DNA from: a virus | Lineage: Duplodnaviria; Heunggongvirae; Uroviricota; Caudoviricetes | IMG/VR virus record: IMGVR_UViG_3300026549_000033 | Location: 64,001-128,000 of that record | Length of the DNA stretch: 64,000 bases | Reading direction: 5' to 3' (one strand) | Shown: piece after piece, positions 3,149-44,837 of the stretch | Layout: each line of letters starts with the position of its first letter | Position numbering within the stretch: position 1 is the first letter of the stretch | The notes under the pieces: model-generated | Database searches by the model: none | Told to the model about the DNA's origin: nothing | Seen by the model: the letters and a program-made list of their open reading frames with translations, nothing else | Made by a program: the position numbers and the translations under genes

Positions 3149-3223
3149 AGCGGGGTAGAGCAGAGGCAGCTCGTCAGGCTCATAACCTGAAGGTCAGTGG
3201 TTCAATTCCACTCTCCGCAACCA
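3149..3223 (+). tRNA. tRNA-fMet (CAT), initiator type
   Basis: Cloverleaf, anticodon arm TCAGG-CTCATAA-CCTGA, 1:72 mismatch, encoded CCA. Confidence 0.92.
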
Positions 3224-3269
3224 TTTATAAAATACGGCACATTGACAACCGAATCTATTTCATGATAAT

Positions 3270-3972
3270 GCACAGGCTCTTAAACTTGCTTAATAACAGC
3301 CTATAAATAGAATTGTGCAAGTAAGGTATGTTTCGAATGTAAAAGCTATCTTTTAGCCTTTGAAATTATAAAGTAGCTTTATGCAGAAGCCGAGGAAATG
3401 AGGATAGTACTATTTAGTAAACCTTTATTGAAGTCCTCATTTCCTCCGTGGACGCTACCTTTAACTTTTAAATGTGTCGACTATGGTCGGTCTGCTCTGC
3501 TGTCTATAGTAAGTCTCTTCAGCTTACCAGAATTGGCAGTCTTCGAAAGAAGGAATTAAAAGAACCCCTGAGGGCAGTTGCGTCTACCAACTTAGCGTTG
3601 GAGGTAAGGAATTAGGTGCAGATGGAAAAGACTAATTCACGGATGGGTAGGGCGCGGCGCGCTGAGAGAACATAAGTCCGCTTAATTGGTCCCGTTGAGA
3701 AATCTTCAACCCGTTAGTCGACCCATTTAAGAGTTAAAGATATGTCACTGAGAAGTTGCATTCTGAGTGGAAGACGGGCACACTCCTTTAAGTGTGGGCT
3801 AGGTGACAGAGGTTATTGTGGTGGTCAAGGGTTGGGCGGACCGAGAACGCATCCCGTTTTTAATCTTTTAGTTTGTGCGTGAAAACTAAAAGACGTGGTT
3901 CAAGTACTTTAACGAAAAATAAGTACTCGGCTTTTTAGCGACAGGTTAGTACAGTGCAACATGTCTAACCTT
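3270..3972 (+). ncRNA. Candidate large structured ncRNA (about 700 nt)
   Basis: ORF-free, GC-elevated, many helices (13 bp 3392-3404/3434-3446; 11 bp 3864-3874/3883-3893); promoter-like TTGACA 3242. Confidence 0.6.
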
Positions 3973-3975
3973 CAT

Positions 3976-4052
3976 GGCCCTATAGATTAATAGGCTAAAT
4001 CGTTGCCCTTTCACGGCAAAGACTTGGAGTTCGAGCCTCCATGGGGCTACCA
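3976..4052 (+). tRNA. tRNA-Glu (TTC)
   Basis: Anticodon arm TTGCC-CTTTCAC-GGCAA, T arm, CCA. Confidence 0.9.
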
Positions 4053-4079
4053 TTTTTAAAGAAAGAAGAGGAAAAGAGT

Positions 4080-4334
4080 ATGAAAAAAGTATTAGTAGCA
4101 TTAATGTTGATTTCTCTCCCTGTAATGGCAGAAGAAGTAGTCACATCACCTGATCAAACTATTGAAAACACCAAGTCTTACACAGGTATTAACTACAACC
4201 GTCAGGATTCTAAACAAGTAGGTACTCAAAAGATTGTTAATGACCACTCATGGTTTAACATTAACATTCAAATAATCAAAAAGGGCGCTCTTTTTAAAGG
4301 TAAAGACGTTGTAGTTGGTAAAGAAGTTAAGTAA
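4080..4334 (+). CDS. Small secreted protein
   Basis: Start reassigned to ATG 4080 because the track start lies inside tRNA-Glu; signal peptide MKKVLVALMLISLPVMA. Confidence 0.7.
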   Translation: MKKVLVALMLISLPVMAEEVVTSPDQTIENTKSYTGINYNRQDSKQVGTQKIVNDHSWFNINIQIIKKGALFKGKDVVVGKEVK

Positions 4335-4425
4335 AAAGTATAGCATGATCGCCACTACCTGTATAGTGGTTTTAATAAGAGCCTTACAGGAGGTGCTTAT
4401 TAATCGACAAAGGAATCATGCGCCA

Positions 4426-4500
4426 GCCCGCATGGCTCAATGGCAGAGCAACGGTTTTGTAAACCGTAGGTTGGGAGTTCAAGTCTCTCTGTGGGCACCA
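4426..4500 (+). tRNA. tRNA-Thr (TGT)
   Basis: Anticodon arm ACGGT-TTTGTAA-ACCGT, CCA. Confidence 0.92.
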
Positions 4501-4568
4501 TTCAAAGGTACTATCTGACCATAAAGTAGGTTGGAATAGCTCTGGGGGTCCTACGTGGATTCCCATTC

Positions 4569-4641
4569 GGGGGTTTAGCTCAGTTGGTAGAGCGCCTGCT
4601 TTGCAAGCAGGATGTCAGGAGTTCAAGTCTCCTATCCTCCA
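4569..4641 (+). tRNA. tRNA-Ala (TGC)
   Basis: Anticodon arm CCTGC-TTTGCAA-GCAGG; CCA not encoded. Confidence 0.9.
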
Positions 4642-4645
4642 TATG

Positions 4646-4715
4646 TGTTCAGTAGCTTATGAGTAAAGCGGTTCCCGAAAGGACGCAAATAAGGTGCAAG
4701 TCCTTATCTGAGCGA
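4646..4715 (+). ncRNA. tRNA-like cloverleaf lacking an anticodon loop
   Basis: Acceptor TGTTCAG/CTGAGCG, D arm GCTT/AAGC, T-like arm ATAAGG-TGCAAGT-CCTTAT, central arm capped by GAAA. Confidence 0.55.
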
Positions 4716-4813
4716 AAACGGTGATGCGCACACGTAGGTTCTTGTTATTTCTTACTGAGAAGAAGTATTCCTCTGGTTCTGTCTCGTCCAGTGCTTAAAA
4801 AACGGGGCTGCAT

Positions 4814-4891
4814 GGGTTCATAGCTCAGTTTGGTCAGAGCGCGTGCCTGTCACGCACGAGGTCGAGGGTTCAAGCCCCTTTGGACCCGCCA
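4814..4891 (+). tRNA. tRNA-Asp (GTC)
   Basis: Anticodon arm CGTGC-CTGTCAC-GCACG, G73, CCA. Confidence 0.93.
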
Positions 4892-4900
4892 TATTTACAA

Positions 4901-4975
4901 TGCCAAGTAGCTCAATGGCAGAGCAATGGTCTGTTAAACCATAGGTTATTGGTTCGAGCCCAATCTTGGCAGCCA
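4901..4975 (+). tRNA. tRNA-Asn (GTT)
   Basis: Anticodon arm ATGGT-CTGTTAA-ACCAT, CCA. Confidence 0.93.
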
Positions 4976-4980
4976 TTTAT

Positions 4981-5096
4981 AATCACGATGTACGCAGTCT
5001 TGGAAAATTGTTGGCTATAAGCATAACGGTAAGGTCAACTTCCACGTATGATCAAACCGTTCACAATTTACTTGTACTGGGGAACGTGGAGTGATT
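4981..5096 (+). ncRNA. Candidate compact pseudoknotted RNA
   Basis: Closing AATCAC/GTGATT plus crossing helices AACGGT/ACCGTT, TCCACGT/ACGTGGA, AAATTG/CAATTT. Confidence 0.5.
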
Positions 5097-5102
5097 TAAT
5101 AC

Positions 5103-5512
5103 GGGGGTGACAGGTTTTGACAGTATAAAACTTGGCATTCTATAACAGGTAGAGACGCATGACCTCTTTAAATCGTGTACAATGATAAACGCTAATAACG
5201 TAATCAAAGCTGACTTCGGCTACAGAACTGCTTTAGCAGCCTAAGAAGTAACCTATAACAGAAGCTGTATGTTATAACGGTTAGGCGCAGCACGTGGTAG
5301 TTTACATTGCTTATGTGGAATGTACGTGAACCCGTCTTTAGTTTGACCACAACACAAGACGTTAAAGTTAGGGTTAGTGGTAGACCTCGGAGGATATTTG
5401 TTAGCTTTCTCCAACCGATTAAAGGCTAAAAGGCTAAAACTAACTAAACCTGTAATAATTATAGGTGTAGAGATATATTGGACCGTGGGTTCAATTCCCC
5501 GCACCTCCACCA
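5103..5512 (+). ncRNA. ssrA: tmRNA
   Basis: 5' GGGGGTGACAGGTTTTGAC, 3' T arm and CACCTCCACCA; tag frame 5191-5244 ANNVIKADFGYRTALAA*. Confidence 0.93.
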
Positions 5513-5519
5513 TTTTAAA

Positions 5520-6170
5520 ACTTACAAACGCAGGTACAACTTGGTAAGCACCGAGCTGAAACAAAAAGGGCTTACGACAATTACAGAGGCGACTACATCT
5601 TATTTCAGCATGGCATGGTCGAGAAGTAATCTGATAAAAAAGCGTTGTACACAGACTCCACCTCTCTGTAGTGAAAGTGGAAAACTATAGTTAATGAGGT
5701 TGTTCGGGCTGCTTTCCTCCACCAAAAAGCAGCTTGTCCTAAAGTTTATAGGTAGGAGGGTCCACCTTCAAAGCAAATCCGCGATGGTACTTCAACGGGA
5801 AATTCTCTTGGAGTTGAGATATTCAGAAGCTAAGATACAGGGCCTAAACCTACCCTATAATTAATTGGGATATGAAAAACTTAGAGCTCTTCAGTTTTTC
5901 ATTGAACGACCGCCACCGCAAATGGCGGGATATAAAACGTGACCCTTTTGTTCAGTTTCGCTCACGCAAAATAATTGAAACTGGAGCCAAGTTTACAAGA
6001 AGTGAGACGGGAAAGCATAAGACTGTACTTCAGTACTGCTCAAATGTCCCCTGTGAAGAGAGTCGACTTACTCACAGCACTATACCTATATAGGCGGTCA
6101 TAGGGCTTACAGTGTACCAAAAAACTGAAATAGGTGGTTTTACCCTCGTTTTACATTAAATAATGGGGGG
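5520..6170 (+). ncRNA. Candidate large structured ncRNA (about 650 nt)
   Basis: No credible ORF; crossing 7-bp helices 5534-40/5644-50, 5555-61/5603-09, 5582-88/5664-70 and many hairpins. Confidence 0.55.
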
Positions 6171-6174
6171 TCAT

Positions 6175-6261
6175 GTAGCAGGTATGCAAGTGGTTAAAGC
6201 AAGGGGTGCTAAAACGCCCCGCCTAATTTGGCTTCGTTGGTTCAAATCCAACTCTGCTTCA
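6175..6261 (+). tRNA. Atypical class II tRNA-like element (Leu-like) with non-canonical anticodon loop
   Basis: D arm TGC-AAGTGGTTAAA-GCA, variable arm GCC-TAATTT-GGC, T arm GTTGG-TTCAAAT-CCAAC; loop GCTAAAAC is 8 nt (or 6 nt); no CCA. Confidence 0.6.
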
Positions 6262-6269
6262 CTTTTAAA

Positions 6270-6780
6270 ATCCATGAGCGGTTGCACGCAAAAAGGGTAA
6301 GGCATGTTATACTCGTTTAGCCTTGTTATAGGGATAAAATAATAGACTGGTGGATGAATGATTTTATCTTTGACGAATTAAACATTCTCATTAAGTGACT
6401 AGTGATAGACAACACGATTTTGTAGTTTAAAGGTTTAGAAACTATGCGGTAGTTGCTTACGCATTCCTTTAAGTACTTCTCCACAAAGAAAGAAGGTAAA
6501 GATAACGACCAAAGGAAGGTGCAACACTTCCTTTTTCCAAAATTTATAAAGCTTGGTTGAGCCTTTACATGCCAATGCGCACAAAACTGAAGGCGGTTTC
6601 CACGCGTTGTCTCCTTAACAATGTGTCATAGAGCTGGAGGAGTGCCTATCTGTATAACATAGGACTTCCAAGGTACTAAGGGCATGCATAGTACCTACCG
6701 TGGGTCGCTACAAACCTTTTGGCGAAAAAGAGTAGTGTCGGTTTTCCCGAGTTTCCTGAGCTGAAAAAAACTCGGGTATA
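6270..6780 (+). ncRNA. Candidate structured ncRNA(s)
   Basis: ORF-free run of hairpins, e.g. AAAGGAAG-GTGCAACA-CTTCCTTT, AGGTACTA/TAGTACCT, CCCGAGTTT/AAACTCGGG. Confidence 0.45.
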
Positions 6781-6781
6781 T

Positions 6782-6868
6782 GGGGCGGTGTGCCGAGTGG
6801 CGAAGGCAGCGGACTGTAAATCCGTGACGTAAGATACAACGTAGGTTCAACTCCTACCCTCCCCACCA
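6782..6868 (+). tRNA. tRNA-Tyr (GTA)
   Basis: Anticodon arm GCGGA-CTGTAAA-TCCGT, long variable loop, CCA. Confidence 0.92.
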
Positions 6869-14530: not shown

Positions 14531-14599
14531 GGTAAGTGTAAAGGGTAACACCGCAACCCATTACAAAAGTATTAGTAAAGCGGTATTGAGGTAAACAAA

Positions 14600-15220: not shown

Positions 15221-15496
15221 GGGAAACCCTATCCTACAAGATAAGAGAGGATTTAAAAAGATGAAAAGATTTATTTTAATTTTAATTTTAGTTTTTGTTT
15301 TTATAGGATTTAATGAAGTAAGAAGTTTTAACAATTCAATAGATGAAAGCATTAAAGCATTAAATGATACAGTGCAAGCATGTACAATAGATATGCAAAA
15401 AGATAAAGATTTAATTTGTGATTAAATAACCTTGAATTTTAAATAAAGATATGATATAATAAGAATGTAAGCAAGTTAAGAAATGAGGTAAACAAA

Positions 15497-15835: not shown

Positions 15836-15856
15836 TTTATAGGGTATTTATTTATT

Positions 15857-15985
15857 CCCACCCCATTAAGATTTAATTCCCATAGAGAGTGCCATCCCAT
15901 TTCGATTGCCTCAGCACTCAATAACTGTAACTGTTTTCGAGGGTTATACCTATATGAAAGTTTTCTATGATTTTGATTTTTAATT
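15857..15985. repeat. About 130-bp non-coding element, copy 1 of 3 (others 18747-18876 and about 23375-23472)
   Basis: Shared blocks CCCACCCCATTAAGATTTAATTCCC, GATTGCCT, GAGGGTTATACC.ATATGAAA, GATTTTGATTTTTAATT. Confidence 0.8.
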
Positions 15986-16200
15986 ATGGGATAAAATAAC
16001 CTTGACAAATTTACATGGGCATGTATATAATAAATATAAATATATTTTTTATATACATGTAACTTTACAAACCTTTACAATAACCTTGCATTTATAAGCA
16101 AAAGCATGTATAATAGAAGTATAAAGAAAACCGAATAAGGAAATGCCTTCCACCTTATCAAATAGTAGAATAAAACGGACGGGCAGAAAAGGATAAAATC

Positions 16201-16539: not shown

Positions 16540-16738
16540 ATTATATTTTGTTTATCTCAATAAAAGAAAAGCCATGCAAAGCCAAGCATGGCTTTTTAGT
16601 TACTCTTATAAATAACCTTGACAAATTTACATGGGCATGTTCTCATAAACAACTTAACAAACCTTTACAATAACCTTGAATTTAAACCGTAAACATGTTA
16701 TAATAAGAATGTAAGATAAATAAATGAGGTAAACAAAC

Positions 16739-17044: not shown

Positions 17045-17167
17045 TAGAATTCGGCTATGTGCAAGGGTTGAAAAATACCCTTGCATATCCACCTAAAAAA
17101 TAACCTTGAATTTAAAAACAAAATCATGTATAATAAGAATGTAAGATAAATAAATGAGGTAAATAAA

Positions 17168-17368: not shown

Positions 17369-17434
17369 CCTTGAACACTAAAACAAAATCATGTATAATA
17401 AGAATGTAAGATAAATAAATGAGGTAAACAAAAC

Positions 17435-17749: not shown

Positions 17750-17816
17750 CCTTGAACACTAAAACAAAATCATGTATAATAAGAATGTAAGCAAGTTAAG
17801 GAATGAGGTAAACAAA

Positions 17817-18035: not shown

Positions 18036-18114
18036 AAAAAAAAATAACCTTGAACACTAAAACAAAATCATGTATAATAAGAATGTAAGCAAGTTAAGGA
18101 ATGAGGTAAACAAA

Positions 18115-18666: not shown

Positions 18667-19000
18667 TTACTCTCTCTCTCTTAACTTCAATTACTTTATA
18701 GGGTACTACTCACCGCAGTAGTACCTCTTTGTTTTGGGTTTTTACTCCCACCCCATTAAGATTTAATTCCCTGTAGAGAGGAGCCAACCCATAACGATTG
18801 CCTACTCCTCAATAATAACTTAACTTTCAGAGGGTTATACCCATATGAAAGATTTGATTGATTTTGATTTTTAATTCCGAGCCTATTTAACCTTGACAAA
18901 TTTACACAGGCATGTTCTATGGATCCATGCCTGTTAATAACCTTGCACATACTTTATAAATCTATTATAATATAAGTATAAAAAGAAAGAGGAAAAACAA

Positions 19001-19267: not shown

Positions 19268-19336
19268 TAACCTTGAATTTAAATACAAGGTATGTTATAA
19301 TAAGAATGTAAGCAGTTAAGAAATGAGGTAAACAAA

Positions 19337-19702: not shown

Positions 19703-19864
19703 CCTTGAACTTATAAAAGAAATCTGTTATACTAATAATGTAAGCAGTTAAGAAACGAAGACTAATAGTCGACGGACCGTCGAGCAAGGGGCGTACGGTT
19801 GACGCTAGCAATACACTGTGCGTCCCTCGTCTGTCCAAATTAAGAAAACAAAGAGGTAATAAAC

Positions 19865-20113: not shown

Positions 20114-20184
20114 CCTTGACTCTAAATACAAAATATGTTATACTAATAATGTAAGCAGTTAAGAAATGAAATGAGGTAAACAAA

Positions 20185-20712: not shown

Positions 20713-20901
20713 TATTTTACCTCATTATATAAAGAGCCATACCCATACAGGCATGGCTTTTCTTTATACCCAAAATAACCTTGACAAATTTACATGGGCA
20801 TGTTCTAATCTTTTCTTAACATTTCTTATAAATAACCTTGAATTTGACATACTTATATGTTATACTAATAATGTAAACAGTTAAGAAATGAGGTAAACAA
20901 A

Positions 20902-21153: not shown

Positions 21154-21225
21154 CCTTGAATTTAAAAACCAAATCATGTATAATAATAATGTAAACAGTT
21201 AAATAAAAGAAATGAGGTAAACAAA

Positions 21226-21714: not shown

Positions 21715-21816
21715 AGGATTTCTCTACCCTTTCAAAATAACCTTGAATTTAAAAACAAAATATGTTATACTAATAATGTAAGCAGTTAAGAAACAAAAAG
21801 AAATGAGGTAAACAAA

Positions 21817-22311: not shown

Positions 22312-22377
22312 CCTTGAATTTAAATACAAGATATGTTATACTAATAATGTAAGCAATAAAGAAATGAGGTAACAATT

Positions 22378-22770: not shown

Positions 22771-22844
22771 CCTTGAATTTAAAAACAAAATCATGTATAA
22801 TAATAATGTAAGCAGTTAAGAAACAAAAAGAAATGAGGTAAATT

Positions 22845-23225
22845 ATGGCAGACACAATTTTTGACAAAATTATTTTCAGTGCATTAGACGAAGAAGTTGT
22901 AAACAACGGATACGGAAATTGCCAAAAATATGAAGTAGAATTAAACTACAACGGAAGAACTTATACAACACACTATACTGATTCAGTAATGGCTTATAGA
23001 AATGGAGAAGACTTAGACTTTAGACAAGTTATGGAATGTTTATTATTGGACAAATCAGCATACGATAGTTGCAGAGATATAGATGACTTCCAAGCAGAGT
23101 TTGGATATGAAAAAGTAAGTGAATGCTTAAAGGCATACAACGGATGTAAAGAAACTTCCGAAGGACTTGAAAGACTATTCACAGAAGAAGAATTGGAACA
23201 ACTTCAGGAAGAAATCAACGATTAA
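22845..23225 (+). CDS. Hypothetical early protein
   Basis: Class A repeat. Confidence 0.8.
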   Translation: MADTIFDKIIFSALDEEVVNNGYGNCQKYEVELNYNGRTYTTHYTDSVMAYRNGEDLDFRQVMECLLLDKSAYDSCRDIDDFQAEFGYEKVSECLKAYNGCKETSEGLERLFTEEELEQLQEEIND

Positions 23226-23262
23226 ACTTGACAGACTTATAAATATACGATATAATTATAGT

Positions 23263-23336
23263 AGCAGTTGTTTACCTCAATAAACTTAATTGCTAAGAAA
23301 GAGATAGGACTACGGAACCCCTATCTCTTTTGTTTT
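23263..23336 (+). ncRNA. Candidate antisense sRNA against the shared class A leader
   Basis: TTGACA(23228)-17-TATAAT promoter, no ORF, hairpin with CCTCAA loop, two blocks complementary to the class A leader, 11-bp terminator. Confidence 0.7.
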
Positions 23337-23643
23337 GGGATTTTCTGCCACACCCAAGAGAGCCACATTTCGCGAGAAGCCAACCCATCATGATTGCCTG
23401 CTTCTCATATATACTTTAACTTTCGAGGGGTTAAACCTATATGAAAAATTCCTATGATTTTGATTTTTAATTATGAATGATTTTTATATTTGACTTTCCA
23501 AAAGTTATAACCGAAGTTATGGAAATAACCTTGACAAATTTACATGGGCATGTTCTCAGATCCATGCCTGTTAATAACCTTGAACATGCAAGGGTAATCT
23601 GTTATAATATAAATGTAAGCAATAAAGAAATGAGGTACAAACT

Positions 23644-24570: not shown

Positions 24571-25919
24571 AAGTCCTGGGGAAACCCTTTCCCCATAAGG
24601 CTTTGCAACCCCTCAATTCTATATGCTTACACTGGTGAAACCCTCTCTATGAGAGGGTAAAGCCATACGCAATTTCAAAATCAACCTCTGGGGAACCCCT
24701 TGCACCACAAGAGCTTTGCCATAGAATGATTTTTATTTTACACTCTCAAACCCCTGCACCATAAGGATTTCCCCATAGATTTTAACAAAACTTAATTAAA
24801 TTTGATTAAATAATTTGACACACTTTAAAATAGGTGATATAATAAAAAGGCTAAAAATTAAAACTCTCTCTCTTTAAGAAAGCTCAAGAGATATATAATA
24901 TAAAAAGAGCTTTGAAGTCTGTAGTTATCCGCTACAGGCTTTTATATTTATTACATTATAAGAGTAGAAAAACTAAATAAGAGAATATAAGAGTTCTTTG
25001 TCCCTTATTCTTTCTCACTTACTTATCTACTTTTATACTTCGGGATATTTCGTACCCACTCTCTCTTTGTTACACTGGTAGATAGCAAAAGTAAGTGAGT
25101 TTTCTTATATAACCTTGACAAATTTACATGAGCATGTTCTAAAATAACCTTGACTATTATACCTATTTTGTGTTATACTTAATCATATAATGGTTAAGTA
25201 TAACACAAAACGAATTGACCTTACACATAGCACATTATACTATATACATAACACCACACCAACAGGAAGAACCCACTGCATATAACTGCACCTTGCATAA
25301 GTACTGTAAAGCCACGCACCACTCCTCTGACACAGAGAACCTTATGCAACCCCACAGAGCTAATGCAATAGTGCATATATATATACATGTATAAGAGGAC
25401 ACCATGAGAATATGCACGCATATACATATAAGAGGACACCATGAGAATATACATGCAAAATCAAATAAAAGTTATTCCAAAGTACATATTAAATTATATA
25501 GTGTAACAAGAGAAATGTTACGAGCAAACTAAATACAATTACAGAAAGTCCTGAAAACAGGCACAGGGCTTGCTTTTTTATGCCACCGCACCCACTTTCC
25601 CTTACAACCACAGTTACTTTACACTTCTTAATAATCCACCAAAATACACTAATTCCTCACATCTCTCACCCAAATCCCTTGCTATACTTACTATTCCACC
25701 TATTTTATATCTACCCGATATAAACCTTTACAAACCTATCTATTCGATATACCGCATAGATATATCTACCCGATACATATTACCACCACAAGTCTTATCT
25801 ATTCTTAATTTCCATACTTTTCATATATCTACACGATATATCTAAAAGGTACATTCTTTACTTTTCTTCATATTTTATGGGATAATATATTCATACCCCT
25901 TTGACTATACTACATGAAA
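24571..25919. other. About 1.35-kb non-coding interval separating class A and class B arrays
   Basis: No credible ORF; orphan promoter TTGACA 24815; 23-bp direct repeat at 25391/25428; G-poor tracts. Confidence 0.75.
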
Positions 25920-25982
25920 TAACCTTGAACATAAATACAATACATGTTATAATAATGGTATAAAGCAAAGGAGTTAAAACTT

Positions 25983-28810: not shown

Positions 28811-28868
28811 AAGGAATGGAAGGGAATATTCGCCCCTTTGGAGTATAGCGACAGGTACTCACATTCCC
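28811..28868 (+). promoter_or_regulatory. 58-bp structured leader element, copy 1 (identical copy 36526-36583)
   Basis: Three-way junction GGAATG/CATTCC, AAGGG/CCCTT, GAGTA/TACTC, between promoter and RBS. Confidence 0.75.
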
Positions 28869-35242: not shown

Positions 35243-38200
35243 ATGAGAAACAAATCAGAATACATTAACAACAGAATTGAAAAACTTTTTGGAAAAGTCG
35301 GAAGACGTAAAGGAGACTTTTATTGTTATGGCTCGTCTATTGCAGAAGTTGTAAATGACGGTGGCGGTATTCATATTGTACTCACAGGAAGAACTACTAC
35401 AGACTTAATAGAAAAACTTGATGCAATAAACGACTATATGAACTTTAAAAAGTATCAAGAAAGCAAGTCGCCCGAAGAAAGCATATAGGCAGAACCCGCA
35501 CAGTACTTGGCTTTCCACAGGTGAAACCTAATCAAAAAATTTCATGAAATTTTGAAATTTATATAAGGACAAAATAACCTTGAACTTAAATAATAAATCT
35601 GTTATAATATAAATGTAAACAGAACAAAAGGAGTTAAAATCATGACAAAAGGAATTACAAACAGAGTTAAAATTCAGAAGTTTATAGACGTTCTTAATAC
35701 TCTGACCTTTGAAGAAGTTACGGAAGAAAATCTTAAAAAAGCACTTCCAAATTCAAGAGTGGACTTTGTGAATAAGGTTGAAGAAGACATGACTGACATT
35801 TCAATAGACGACTATACCTTTACTATTCACAAAAAAGTAATAGGTGAAAAATACCCTATAGAATGGGTACTTATTGGAGCAGACACAGACCACCCATATT
35901 TCTTATCTGACTATGTAGAAGTTTACCTTCCTATACAAGAAGACGATAGTACCATGTATTGTGAAATACAAGCTGAAGGCTACATTGAACCACATAATTC
36001 GGGAAAAGAATTTTGGCTTAGACTTCATTTCTACAATAATTAAAAATAACCTTGAACTTAAATAATAAATCTGCTATAATATAAATGTAAACAGAAAAAC
36101 AAAAGGAGTTAAAATCATGTTATTAGGAACATTTTTGACAGACGTAGACAAAGCATACGACTTTCTACAATTAACTAAAAAAGAATTCTTGGAAAGCTAC
36201 TCATACTTAACAGAACAAGAATACGACGAAACAAATGCTGAATTCTTATCAGATAAAACAGGAAACTTGGCAGAACTCATGAGGGATGCTGAAAACATGC
36301 TTATCGAAGAAAACACATATTTTGACAATGAAGATACAAACCCATACAGAGGTGCAACAGTAACAGGTGAACAACTTAAATCAGCCGTATACTGTTATAC
36401 CGTAGAACACTTAAACAAAGAGGAACAACAGGAATTTGAAGAAATATGTGAAGACATGGGTTGTTAAAATAACCTTGAACATACAAAGAAAACCTGTTAT
36501 AATATAAATATAAACAGATAAAACAAAGGAATGGAAGGGAATATTCGCCCCTTTGGAGTATAGCGACAGGTACTCACATTCCCTTATACAAAACAAAAGG
36601 AGTTAAATCATGGAAAACAAAATTGAAATTATTATGTCTGATTCAAATGATAACGACATAAACATAGAAGAAGACTTTGAAAAAGCCGTAGAAAGACTTT
36701 ACGAAGTAGACAAAGTATTTACAAGAGACGAAGTACAAGAAATGCTATACAAAGCAAGAGCTATTGCTGAAAACTTGGACGTATTAGAAAAACAAGCCTA
36801 TCAAGAAGGTAAAGAAACACAAGCTGAAATAGATGGTAAACCTATGAATGAACAATGGATACAGGATTCAAAAGAAATCCCAAATACAAAACGTATCCTT
36901 ATTGATATAGACTGTGCTTACGACGAATTCTATCTTATGCACGATAAAGACAACCTTCTTCCAAATTCTTGCAATTCTGTAGAAGTTGTAACAAAAGAAG
37001 TTGCAGAATCTAACGACAGAGACATGGATGCTACAGAGGACGAAGAAAATTATAAGGTAGGAGAAGGTCTCTCATACTACAGAGAACTTGGAGACAGTGG
37101 CTACTACTTTAGGTTTATGTAAAGGAGTTGTACTATGAACAAAGAAGAATTATTTAGAAAAATTAAGAACTTTTCAAGAAATGACAATGGCAGAATTATT
37201 CTCGGTGATATCCTTGAACTTCGCATATCAGAAGACGGAGAAAACCTTGACGTTTATAAGTACACTAACTTAGACAACGTAAATATTGAAGAATATGACT
37301 TTGACGGAGACTATATAACTTCAATATATCTCAAATAATCCCGAACGGTAATAAAAGTACAAATCAGATAATATATTATCTAAAATATGCCCGAACGGTA
37401 ATAAATAGCTAATATATTATCTATAATAAAATAACCTTGAACATACAAATCAAATCTGTTATAATATAAATGTAAACAGAAAAACAAAGGAGTTAAAATC
37501 ATGGCAGTAATTTTAAAAGACACAGACGTTAAAGAAACAAATTCAAAGTATGGCTATGTCGTAGAAATGTTTGACACAGTAGAAGACTTCAAAGGCTATA
37601 TCAGAGAAGAACTCTTAAATATTAGAAGAAATCTTAGAACTGACGGCATGGAAGACGAGGAATTAGATACTTTAATAGAAAAGAACTTATCAAATTGGAG
37701 CTTTGCTACCTTGTATAACAAATACAAAGAGTATAACTTTGCGTATGAGTTTGAAATCATATAAGGAGATAAGACATGACAAAGAAATGCCTATCAAATA
37801 AAGAATTTCAAGAGGTATTAGAACTCTTAGGAAAACAAGTTTTCCGAAATGGTACAATACACTATGTAGACCACTCAAAGAGATACCACTATGCCCTCTT
37901 TGTATATTTCCCCGAATATTCTGAAAAAGTACTTGACGTTATGGCAGATAAATTCGGAAGAAACATAGACTTTGAAACAGTACATGTACCAAACAAGGAC
38001 TTTTCAAAGTCTGAAATAGAGGACTACACAGAAATTTATAAATTAAACAACAGATTCACAATTACAGAGCAAACACCCATACTTGAATTAAAAGTGCGTG
38101 GGTATATTAACGAATACAAATAAGGAGTTAAAATCATGAAAAAAGAATATACATCAACAGTAGACGGACTTATAGAAGTACTCACAAAAATTAAAGAAAA

Positions 38201-41030: not shown

Positions 41031-41059
41031 CAATGATATTTTAACTCCCAAATTACAAT

Positions 41060-41154: not shown

Positions 41155-43230
41155 ATGGCTAAAAAAATTGTTGGTAAAAATGGAAAGAAAGAAACTTATT
41201 TTAATAAGTATGTTATAGGTGATAATAATGTATGCCCCGAATGTCATAGACCGTTCAAAGACTATGACCTCAAGAATATTGAAGAAAGAGGTACAATTTC
41301 CTGTGTTAAGTGCGGAGCAAAATTAAGCAGAAAATAACCTTGAACTTTCATATCAAAAGTGGTATAATAAAAGTATAAAAGATACTAAATAGGAGACACC
41401 ACCAATGATGGACACATACTCAGTTGAATATTGGACAACGGACGGCACAAGAGTAGGAGTACAAATTCAAGCATACTCCTCATACGATGCACAGAGATAT
41501 GCAGAACAAATGCCAAACTTTGATATATTGGCATCTTTCCCTGAAAAAATTGCATCAGGCTAAATTTTATTTTAACTCATTTTGTTTTGACAACTCCTTC
41601 CTTTTATGCTACAATTAAGTTGTAAATAGGAAGGAGTTCTTTTATGTTACAATCAAATAGAGAGAAAGAGATATCTAAAGCAGATATGCGTAAAAAAGTA
41701 GAGGCATGGAAAACAATTAACAGTGTTCTTGTGAAAGCTAATGCAGACTACATGAATTCTTTAGCAAGCCTACTTACCGAAAAGCAAGTGCAATTATCAC
41801 AACTTGAAGAAAAGCTAAAAGGTGAGGGAGCTACAGAAGAAGACAATGCAGAGTACTTATTTCAAGCAGGATATACCCAGTGCTTAAAGGATATCTTAAA
41901 TGCCAAGAAAACCACGCAATCCTAAACGAGATAAGCCTTCGAGTAATCCTTTGAATAACTTAGACTTGTCTGCTTTCTTAGAACCCAAAAAAGACACCAA
42001 AACCACCAAAAAAGAAACTTACAAGGGGTTACAAAAAGAATACGAAAGAATTCTCCATAAAGAAATTCAAAGAGAAAATAGAGCCTATAGAGTAGTTTAT
42101 ATGAACCATCCTGAACTACTCTATGTTGCTTTTAGTAGTAACAGGGAAAATGCTAAATGGCAATCAGCAAAGTACTTTAAAGAAACTTTAAATCCGTTCT
42201 TTACTAAAGACAGTTATAATAAAGAAATGATGAATAGCCGTGCCTACAGGGTACAGGAACTTGATAAGTTTGCTTTAAAAGGAGTTATCCCTATCCCTGA
42301 CTTACTACATGCTCTTGACGTTTCTATGCCCTGTTCTGTTTGCGGAAAAGACCATTTTGACTACTCCGACTATGAAAAGGGAAGGTGCTTTATTGTAGAA
42401 GGAGAAGGAAATCTGAACCCTTTTACACAAGGTTATATCTTATGTTACGAATGTCATAAAAAATACTTAGGAAAGAATTAAATAACCTTGAACATGACCT
42501 AAAAATTCTATATAATATAAGTATAGAAACAAACAAAACAGGAGATAAAATGTCATACATCACATCAAATCTTGCTCCTTATCGTAGCAAGGATATAGGA
42601 AAAGAATTTTCAGAAATATTGGCAGAAGACTATGAATGGGTACGCTCCTCTATAGAAGACAGAGGAATAATCTTTTTCTTAGCTACCGTTTCTGTTATGA
42701 CCTTATCTTTACTTAAGGCTATTTCACACGTCATAACTCAAATGCAGAAACCTGTAATGGAATATAATCACTTGAAATTACATAGAGGTATGGAATCTGA
42801 ATCCATTACTCAAATTCTCACAAGGAGAGAGTGCATAGACGAAGTGAAAAACCATGACAATCTATGCCCAAATAATAAGGTTAAAACCGAGAAAGTAGAA
42901 AAACTAAATACTTTGAGAAACTACTTATATCAGCATGACTTAACCCTTCATGCTACCGTACTTAAAACCATAAATCATAAACTCACAGACGACGAGCTTA
43001 TTGAAATGTATAGGTTAGGTGAAATCACTAAACCTTTAACAACTACTCATATCACCTTTGGAGATAACTTAAATCGTCTATTAAAAGATACCTTAGGAAA
43101 TACTATTGATTTAAAAACAAATCGTGTAACAAAAGAAACCTATCTTAGAATTTTCAACGACGATTATATGCCCATCAAAGAAGGATTACAGAATTTATAC
43201 AATGAAAAAGTAAAGCTCAAATTTGACTAA
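41155..43230 (+). CDS. Hypothetical genes 41155-41337 (zinc ribbon), 41405-41563, 41644-41925, 41900-42481 (CxxC pairs), 42550-43230
   Basis: ORFs with RBSs; 41405-41563 (52 aa) is not in the track. Confidence 0.75.
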
Positions 43231-44294: not shown

Positions 44295-44837
44295 ATGCAA
44301 ACAACAATCTTTAGAAATGAAAACAAAGTAAGTAACGAAGAAGTATTAAACTTATTCACACAAACTTTAGAGGACACAGAATTATTTGAAAAAAGCGAAA
44401 TTGAAGAATTATCTGACATTGTAGCTAAAAACCCTGCGGATAAATTCATCGTTTCAGAAAAACCGAGTGTACCTGTAATGCAAGGCGACCTTTTGATTTG
44501 GTCTGACTTAACAGACGAATACAAAAAAGAATTCCCAAGAGTTCACGATTTAGCTCTTACTACACGTATGGTTTTACAAGACGACGATTCTATTACAGGC
44601 GACCATGAACTTGTACCTTTAAGAAATGCTAAATTTACTTTAAGCACAGGTAAATTTGTACCTTCTATACTTGAAGGACATACATGGGGTAGCAACTCTT
44701 ATGATTGCAAAATTCTTGAAATTGATACACCTTTTGTTATCAAGCACAGAGAACACGGAAACATAGCTTTGACAGCTGGTAAATATATGATTTGTTCTTC
44801 ATTAGATTCAGAATCATTAACAAGAATGAGAGATTAG
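44295..44837 (+). CDS. Conserved hypothetical protein (QGD...TGxH...HxEH family)
   Basis: MQGDLLI, ITGDHEL, KHREHGNIALTAGKY. Confidence 0.6.
   Translation: MQTTIFRNENKVSNEEVLNLFTQTLEDTELFEKSEIEELSDIVAKNPADKFIVSEKPSVPVMQGDLLIWSDLTDEYKKEFPRVHDLALTTRMVLQDDDSITGDHELVPLRNAKFTLSTGKFVPSILEGHTWGSNSYDCKILEIDTPFVIKHREHGNIALTAGKYMICSSLDSESLTRMRD

Follow-up and report, generated by a model that had tools for sequence, protein, structure and literature searches.

A small RNA gene complementary to the common leader of an ORFan gene bank in an uncultured rumen phage, a probable class-specific translational repressor

The locus described here belongs to an uncultured rumen phage, whose record comprises 195,221 bp with direct terminal repeats and 34% G+C; the window, i.e. 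the whole stretch of 64,000 nucleotides that was analysed, corresponds to bases 64001-128000 of this record. The sequencing runs that contain the phage are nearly all bovine or sheep gut metagenomes, and the combination of strong Shine-Dalgarno sequences (SDs) and sigma-70-type hexamers suggests a Firmicute-like host. The stretch 3149-6865 carries a phage tmRNA (5103-5512, 104.7 bits) and seven tRNA genes. On the + strand, between 10 and 43 kb of the window, there are about 50 promoters of one type, aATAACCTTGAAc-17-tgTTATAAT, nearly each of which drives one small ORFan gene. The leaders of this gene bank fall into two classes that have the promoter type in common: the class A leader (15.4-23.6 kb) consists of GTAAGCAGTTAAG, a linker of 3-13 nt, and TGAGGTAAACAAaATG, and the class B leader (25.9-42.5 kb) of GTAAACAG...AAAGGAGTTAAAATCATG. 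For the ten proteins tested, class A proteins included, searches of Pfam and PHROGs revealed no function.

Several further features accompany the bank. A gene-free stretch of 1.35 kb (24571-25920) separates class A from class B and contains repeated motifs (CTGGTGAAACCCTCTCTA-like units) and a direct repeat at about 25380-25450; longer arrays are found in relatives. The sequence ATAACCTTGACAAATTTACATGGGCATGT occurs six times on the + strand (16000, 16616, 18891, 20779, 23529 and 25113), each time 3' of a terminator and at the opening of a gene block, with an intact -10 box in the 16000 copy only; relatives carry such copies too. Behind bank promoters there is also a G+C-rich structured leader (GGAATGGAAGGGAATATTCGCCCCTTTGGAG...) in two copies (28813-28862 and 36528-36577, + strand), and another structured leader (19740-19860, + strand) follows a promoter at 19705; all three may be cis-regulatory RNAs.

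The element of interest, here called sRNA1, begins immediately behind gene 22845-23225, whose stop codon occupies 23223-23225, with a -35 box at 23228 (Table 1). Its promoter is a perfect plain consensus, as a preliminary description of this DNA had claimed, unlike the about 50 ATAACCTTGAAc-type promoters of the bank, whose ATAACC motif it lacks. The absence of a credible ORF, also claimed there, is borne out: the sole frame, a TTG-initiated ORF of 41 codons (23268-23393), was discounted because it has no SD and because indels in the seed and stems of different alleles would shift it. The RNA 23263-23336 is predicted to fold into two hairpins (-22.2 kcal/mol, z = -4.4, with 0 of 200 shuffled sequences folding as well), and this computed fold agrees with the one proposed earlier, in which an exposed CCUCAA loop is followed by a terminator and a U tract. 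No terminator was found between the upstream gene and sRNA1 before position 23297, and since the two use one terminator, the anti-leader element is also the 3' end of the upstream mRNA.

Table 1. Positions of sRNA1, of the class A leaders predicted to pair with it and of related elements, in window coordinates (ddG, net pairing energy with sRNA1, kcal/mol)
Feature	Position	Strand	Remarks
sRNA1 promoter	23228-23256	+	TTGACA 23228-23233, 17-nt spacer, TATAAT 23251-23256; 12/12 consensus
Predicted sRNA1 transcript	23263-23336	+	about 74 nt; start inferred from the -10 box
sRNA1 5' hairpin	23263-23294	+	23263-23274 with 23281-23294; apical loop CCUCAA 23275-23280 (anti-SD)
sRNA1 seed	23268-23279	+	TTGTTTACCTCA; exact complement of TGAGGTAAACAA (SD and spacer)
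sRNA1 second antisense block	23285-23294	+	CTTAATTGCT; complements leader 5' block AGCAGTTAAG, one G-U
Rho-independent terminator	23297-23336	+	12-bp stem 23297-23308/23320-23331, 11-nt loop, U tract; common to upstream gene 22845-23225
Leader target site, gene 14600	14585-14598	+	14-nt match; ddG -15.7
Class A leader, gene 15497	15467-15495	+	ddG -17.1
Class A leader, gene 16739	16711-16736	+	ddG -13.5
Class A leader, gene 17168	17141-17166	+	TGAGGTAAATAA, pairs via one G-U; ddG -8.4
Class A leader, gene 17435	17406-17431	+	ddG -14.4
Class A leader, gene 17817	17787-17815	+	ddG -21.4
Class A leader, gene 18115	18085-18113	+	ddG -17.8
Class A leader, gene 19337	19308-19335	+	ddG -20.8
Class A leader, gene 20185	20151-20183	+	ddG -19.7
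Class A leader, gene 20902	20873-20900	+	ddG -15.9
Class A leader, gene 21226	21191-21224	+	ddG -12.0
Class A leader, gene 21817	21778-21815	+	ddG -18.1
Class A leader, gene 22378	22349-22377	+	TGAGGTAAC...; ddG -11.3
Class A leader, gene 22845	22808-22844	+	TGAGGTAAATT; gene whose mRNA ends in sRNA1; ddG -15.9
Class A leader, gene 23644	23615-23643	+	TGAGGTAC...; ddG -13.9
Promoter-less seed paralogue	16545-16559	+	ATTTTGTTTATCTCA; between stop 16539 and terminator 16566-16597; 15 bp, one G-U
Promoter-less anti-SD	20715-20726	+	TTTTACCTCATT; between stop 20712 and a terminator
sRNA2, second small RNA gene	24815-24950	+	TTGACA-17(TG)-TATAAT, unpaired CUCUCUCUCUUU seed, AAGCUC/GAGCUU hairpin, terminator

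Transcription of the locus was followed in assembled metatranscriptome contigs, which carry no strand, 5' end or level. One RNA contig of 298 nt, from run X21, covers 23033-23330 with zero mismatches and ends at the 3' foot of the terminator; the contigs of runs X5 and X6 end at 23234 and 23267. Not one RNA contig extends past the terminator, while a DNA contig reaches from 23223 to 23512, and in run X21 88% of the sRNA1 stretch is present against 24% of the surrounding 4 kb. The end of the X21 contig is compatible with termination at 23331-23336, and its extent makes the anti-leader the 3' end of the upstream mRNA as well. As the upstream gene is also covered, the contig is evidence of read-through no less than of a separate transcript. 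The term 'stand-alone', as used in the preliminary description, is not strictly apt, since the terminator is common to the upstream mRNA and one RNA contig extends over both.

The seed of sRNA1 is complementary to a sequence that is characteristic of the bank. TGAGGTAAACAA occurs in the window in 11 sense (+) copies, directly before the ATG of all 11 genes that had been named as targets, and in one inverted copy at 23268 (12 matches against 0.01 expected); the remaining 131 kb of the genome contain no further copy in either sense, so that the inverted one is the sole minus-sense copy in 195 kb. Two other pairings proposed earlier were recovered as well, namely the 14-nt match to the leader of gene 14600 (ATTGAGGTAAACAA) and that of the second block with the upstream part of the leader. 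The two antisense blocks of sRNA1 correspond exactly to both conserved leader blocks, and the 5-nt spacer between them faces the leader linker of variable length. The seed match is plainly no chance event, and the element is plainly a leader copied in inverted orientation. Net pairing energies, calculated as the cofold duplex energy minus both unfolded partners, average -15.0 kcal/mol for the 16 class A initiation regions with GAGGTA, -1.7 kcal/mol for 30 class B regions and -1.8 kcal/mol for 19 others, i.e. class A sites are predicted to be favoured over class B sites by about 13 kcal/mol. Among the long intergenic stretches sRNA1 was also by far the best partner of the class A consensus (-27.7, with the runner-up at -16.1); the genome-wide search for complementary stretches was a run-length scan.

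Relatives of the locus were identified in metagenome contigs by means of homologues of the upstream 126-aa gene, and one JGI contig by a search with the promoter sequence. The sRNA1 unit was found directly 3' of the stop codon of the upstream gene in nine contigs, i.e. the window and eight contigs from rumen metagenomes, where it occurs as five alleles (allele 1 in the window and L015; allele 2 in L008, L009 and L010; allele 3 in L016; allele 4 in L017 and L018; allele 5 in L019). The bank itself recombines: L015 has an upstream gene of another type, yet its sRNA1 is identical to that of the window. Alleles 1 and 2 have all 29 nt of the promoter in common, and allele 3 departs from them by one base; alleles 4 and 5 have TTGACA-17-TAAAAT/TATAAT with a different spacer sequence. 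The seed TTGTTT(T)ACCTCA lies in or at the apical loop of all alleles and is invariant in alleles 1, 3, 4 and 5, with one extra T in allele 2. The stems of the 5' hairpin vary (AGCAGTT/AATTGCT; AAGCA with GTTG; TAAGCA with AGTT and GTTT; AATAAGTA/TACTTATT), and those of the terminator have almost no sequence in common and are still paired. Single-sequence folds yielded the same two hairpins for all five alleles (z from -4.4 to -6.7), with the whole or most of (U)ACCUCA exposed in the apical loop of each, as the kissing interaction postulated earlier would demand. In each of the five alleles, the sequence that follows the loop is complementary to one of the known forms of the mRNA 5' end; in allele 3 this is GTAAGCAAGTTAAG (14 of 14 positions), in alleles 4 and 5 GTAAGCAATAA. 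Since both antisense blocks have been kept while the rest drifts, the phage leader fits better as the target than a generic SD.

A combination of MAFFT and RNAalifold predicted no structure for the alleles, because the stems are too diverged for sequence alignment; single-sequence folds and a model-based alignment were used instead. A covariance model built from allele 1 alone detected all nine copies, with E values between 1e-28 and 5e-4, and no other credible match in 187 kb; weak matches at 44769 and 15143 turned out to be ordinary terminator hairpins. In the resulting alignment, which is fitted to the structure of the model, 14 of the 25 pairs are changed on both sides (6 of 13 in the 5' hairpin and 8 of 12 in the terminator), 93.1% of all cells and 98.5% of those in the terminator are paired, none of 500 shuffles equals this, and sliding the partners by one column reduces pairing to about 50%. 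Given five alleles in nine contigs, a promoter that has been kept, an invariant seed and covarying stems, we regard sRNA1 as very probably a genuine gene under selection.

One lineage, however, lacks it at the syntenic site. In L004/L005, whose upstream protein is 75% identical and which carry ten targetable leaders of class A type, 15.7 kb of a 49-kb contig were covered, and the site contains the terminator and the conserved downstream element only, with neither sRNA1 promoter nor anti-leader hairpin. The preliminary description had held that relatives with class A leaders and without the element would speak against it; such a case is in part at hand at this site, while the other lineages keep the element. 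It had also suggested that sRNA and leader might co-vary among relatives, and no lineage-specific co-variation of seed and leader was observed: every allele is predicted to bind the leaders of each lineage, with alleles 3 and 4 binding the leaders of the window better than allele 1 does, and the leader spacers of relatives vary (AAAATT, AATAAC, ACGAA) while the seed stays invariant. Searches of IMG/VR with the seed hairpin, the class A leader, the promoter and the combined pattern recovered no further copy, and the upstream gene has no relative there; the only relative in that database breaks off 130 bp before gene 23644. No match was found in the phage GenBank collection, a pattern scan of the 185,579 species genomes of GTDB returned 20 matches, all of unrelated architecture, with no copy of sRNA1 among them, and a comparison of 23228-23340 with Rfam yielded no family, whether at the gathering threshold or with E relaxed to 5.

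Anti-leader sequences are not confined to sRNA1. Two promoter-less elements directed against class A lie 3' of stop codons (Table 1): the one at 16545 (TTGTTTAtCTCAATAAA) is identical to the core of sRNA1 at 16 of 17 positions, and the one at 20715 is kept in L004, L009, L010, L017, L018 and L019 in front of unrelated terminators. Class B anti-leader elements were observed likewise 3' of stop codons, at 41038-41048 and 41569-41588 (+ strand). Besides, AACTCCTTCCT, within the spacer of a TTGACA-17-TACAAT promoter at 41590-41639 (+ strand), complements the SD AGGAAGGAGTT of gene 41644, which it would mask only in read-through transcripts.

We propose that sRNA1 would act as a trans-acting antisense RNA of about 74 nt, transcribed by a host sigma-A-type polymerase from its own consensus promoter up to the terminator that it has in common with the upstream gene. 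The loop of the 5' hairpin would display ACCUCA and kiss the GAGGU SD of class A leaders, whereupon the hairpin would open to form two duplexes, one of 12 bp over the SD and spacer and another of about 10 bp over the 5' block of the mRNA, separated by an internal loop that would tolerate the linker of 3-13 nt. Binding of the 30S subunit would be blocked, a substrate of RNase III would probably be made, and about 16 ORFan genes with the common leader would be lowered together; class B genes, which have the same promoter type but a AAGGAGTT leader, would be spared. That sRNA1 pairs with class A leaders and lowers their translation seems to us fairly likely. What the analysis establishes is the gene, the way it is conserved and folded, and its complementarity to one leader class; that transcription starts at 23263, that the effect is repression, and when it takes place are what we infer, and the promoter could fire before, during or after those of the bank. 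The proposal poses a problem of stoichiometry, because one sRNA1 promoter faces at least 16 target promoters, and sRNA1 would have to be far more stable than the mRNAs, to act catalytically through RNase III, or to be supplemented by the 3'UTR copies.

Other readings have to be weighed against repression in trans. The element might act in cis from the 3' end of upstream mRNAs, either as a read-through insulator that masks the next leader or by 5'-3' pairing that limits translation of its own mRNA, with the promoter adding little. Such a role would suit the promoter-less anti-leaders between stop and terminator at 16545 and 20715, the latter conserved in six other contigs, and their class B equivalent at 41038; it would also suit the anti-SD in the promoter spacer at 41590-41639, which can work only on read-through transcripts, and the RNA contig that runs from gene 22845-23225 into sRNA1 with no intervening terminator. 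We nevertheless consider it unlikely as the main explanation, for a consensus promoter is present in five of five alleles and placed for a start at the foot of the hairpin, a hairpin with the seed in its loop is how a free antisense RNA is built, and the next leader lies 300 nt downstream, beyond a strong terminator. The cis and trans roles of sRNA1 are, however, compatible with each other. It has also to be asked whether sRNA1 acts mainly on host mRNAs, or on any mRNA led by an SD, the class A match merely reflecting leaders that copy a strong host-type SD. The invariance of the seed in the face of varying spacers, with no cognate co-variation, points in that direction, and known phage sRNAs act mostly on host genes (PMC12197685). 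This reading is quite unlikely in our opinion, because a host target leaves unexplained the second block, which every allele keeps antisense to the phage-specific 5' end GUAAGCA(G/A)UUAAG; moreover, the element is an inverted copy of the whole phage leader, and the scan of species genomes returned unrelated matches only.

The outcome of pairing with class A leaders might on the other hand be positive, with the mRNA 5' end shielded against 5'-dependent decay, or consist in trimming of the leader by RNase III. In alleles 3 to 5 the second block indeed reaches the mRNA 5' end (GCUUAC with GUAAGC), but the longest and only invariant duplex is the one over the SD and the spacer up to the AUG. Occupation of this stretch normally blocks initiation, as established for sar of P22, c4 of P1 and many bacterial sRNAs, and an outcome other than repression is accordingly very unlikely. 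Finally, the element could be a neutral scar left when promoter-leader cassettes recombined or were duplicated in inverted orientation, or a palindrome that matters at the DNA level, with no function as RNA: its origin from a leader is clear, the bank recombines, as seen in L015, and one lineage lacks it at the syntenic site. An invariant seed and compensated stems across five alleles, a promoter that has been kept, terminator stems that have been fully rewritten and are yet paired, and folding z-scores of -4.4 to -6.7 make this explanation, already disfavoured, highly improbable. Repression in trans is our preferred reading of sRNA1.

The second small RNA gene, sRNA2, has a promoter that is identical to that of sRNA1 at 23 of 29 positions, and it is kept in all relatives, L004 included. 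Its CU-repeat seed complements the GA-repeat SDs behind the 13 perfect-consensus promoters of the genome, with the best match, of 14 nt, at genome position 6090; the predicted pairing energy is about -15.7 kcal/mol for nine GA-repeat genes (mean of the listed values) against -9.2 kcal/mol for all 306 ORFs. The existence of another sRNA, whose seed matches the leaders of another class, increases our confidence in anti-leader RNAs as a strategy of this group of phages. We tentatively envisage an early programme that is governed by a distributed RNA network, and not by protein repressors, in which each leader class possibly has matching antisense modules: sRNA1 and the 3'UTR copies at 16545 and 20715 for class A (GAGGUAAACAA), the 3'UTR copies at 41038 and 41569 for class B (AAGGAGUUAAAAU), and sRNA2 for the GA-repeat leaders behind consensus promoters. 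If this were true, any ORFan that recombination places behind a cassette leader would come under translational control that is class-specific and self-limiting.

In large phages of the virulent type, the timing of early genes is known to depend on proteins (sigma-like factors, RegA and RegB, for example), and the phage sRNAs described to date have, to our knowledge, mostly single phage genes or host genes as targets. The sar RNA of P22 and the OOP RNA of lambda resemble sRNA1 in that they too are short, carry a terminator hairpin and pair across a ribosome-binding site; however, they are encoded opposite a single target, whereas the gene of sRNA1 lies apart from its targets, though on their strand, and what it matches is a leader that is repeated. 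Type I 3'UTR sRNAs (DapZ, MicL) are made from an internal promoter and have their terminator in common with the mRNA. sRNA1 has this anatomy, its promoter lying where the upstream ORF ends and one terminator serving both sRNA and mRNA, and the elements at 16545 and 20715, which have no promoter, would be the counterparts of type II, which is processed; the DapZ/MicL type is, however, bacterial and Hfq-dependent and has unrelated targets, while the predicted targets of sRNA1 include the leaders of its own parent operon. At the level of sequence sRNA1 also has the attributes of a trans-encoded anti-SD sRNA, namely its own promoter, a Rho-independent terminator, no conserved ORF, and a conserved, accessible seed against the initiation regions of several genes that lie elsewhere.

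The closest likeness among phage RNAs is to c4 of P1/P7, a small RNA in which two short complementary blocks occlude a ribosome-binding region elsewhere in the phage transcriptome rather than on the strand opposite to it (PMC12197685). However, c4 is cut from the operon transcript of its single target (icd/ant) and serves prophage immunity, whereas sRNA1 has a promoter of its own and about 16 predicted targets dispersed across 9 kb, which sets it apart from processed operon RNAs of the c4 type; nor does it belong to the c4 family as judged by Rfam, no model of which matches even at E of 5 or less. In T4, the RegB endoribonuclease cuts GGAG in early mRNAs (PMC1702504). RegB and RegA are comparable to sRNA1 in that one phage product silences many early mRNAs via a short motif in the ribosome-binding site and provides a class-specific post-transcriptional switch, but they are proteins, while here an RNA would act and the discriminating motif would be GAGGUAAACAA versus AAGGAGUU. 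The bank itself resembles the PeSL cassettes of T4-like phages, in which ORFans each stand behind a repeated early promoter motif and are shuffled by recombination; the abstracts of the two reports treat PeSLs as motifs of recombination and regulation and mention no antisense RNA against a common leader (PMC2839356, PMC4122927). sRNA1 itself is no PeSL, since its order is promoter, hairpin and terminator, with no ORF after them. The preliminary description knew of no equivalent, and we found none in Rfam or in a 2025 review of phage sRNAs, which lists no sRNA of a lytic-type phage that acts on a common leader of its own genes and in which c4 of P1/P7 is the nearest case (PMC12197685). We conclude that sRNA1 represents a real new sRNA family and is probably a class-specific translational repressor; the class-wide switch-down of leader-sharing phage genes that it probably exerts is new to both sources. 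A conserved sRNA directed against the leader of a recombining ORFan bank would be a cheap and modular device that regulates any newly captured gene, and the correspondence of leader class and seed would provide a readable code for the prediction of regulons in the genomes of uncultured phages.

A further conserved non-coding element, of about 140 nt, was observed on the + strand 3' of three terminators, at 15850-15990, 18745-18885 and 23340-23500. It comprises a covarying hairpin (GAGTGC/GCACTC, GAGGAG/CTCCTC, GAGAAGC/GCTTCTC) around the loop CCAaCCCAT..GATTGCCT, followed by TTTCGAGGGGTTA.ACC.ATATGAAA, and it has been also kept in L004, L008 and L016-L019.
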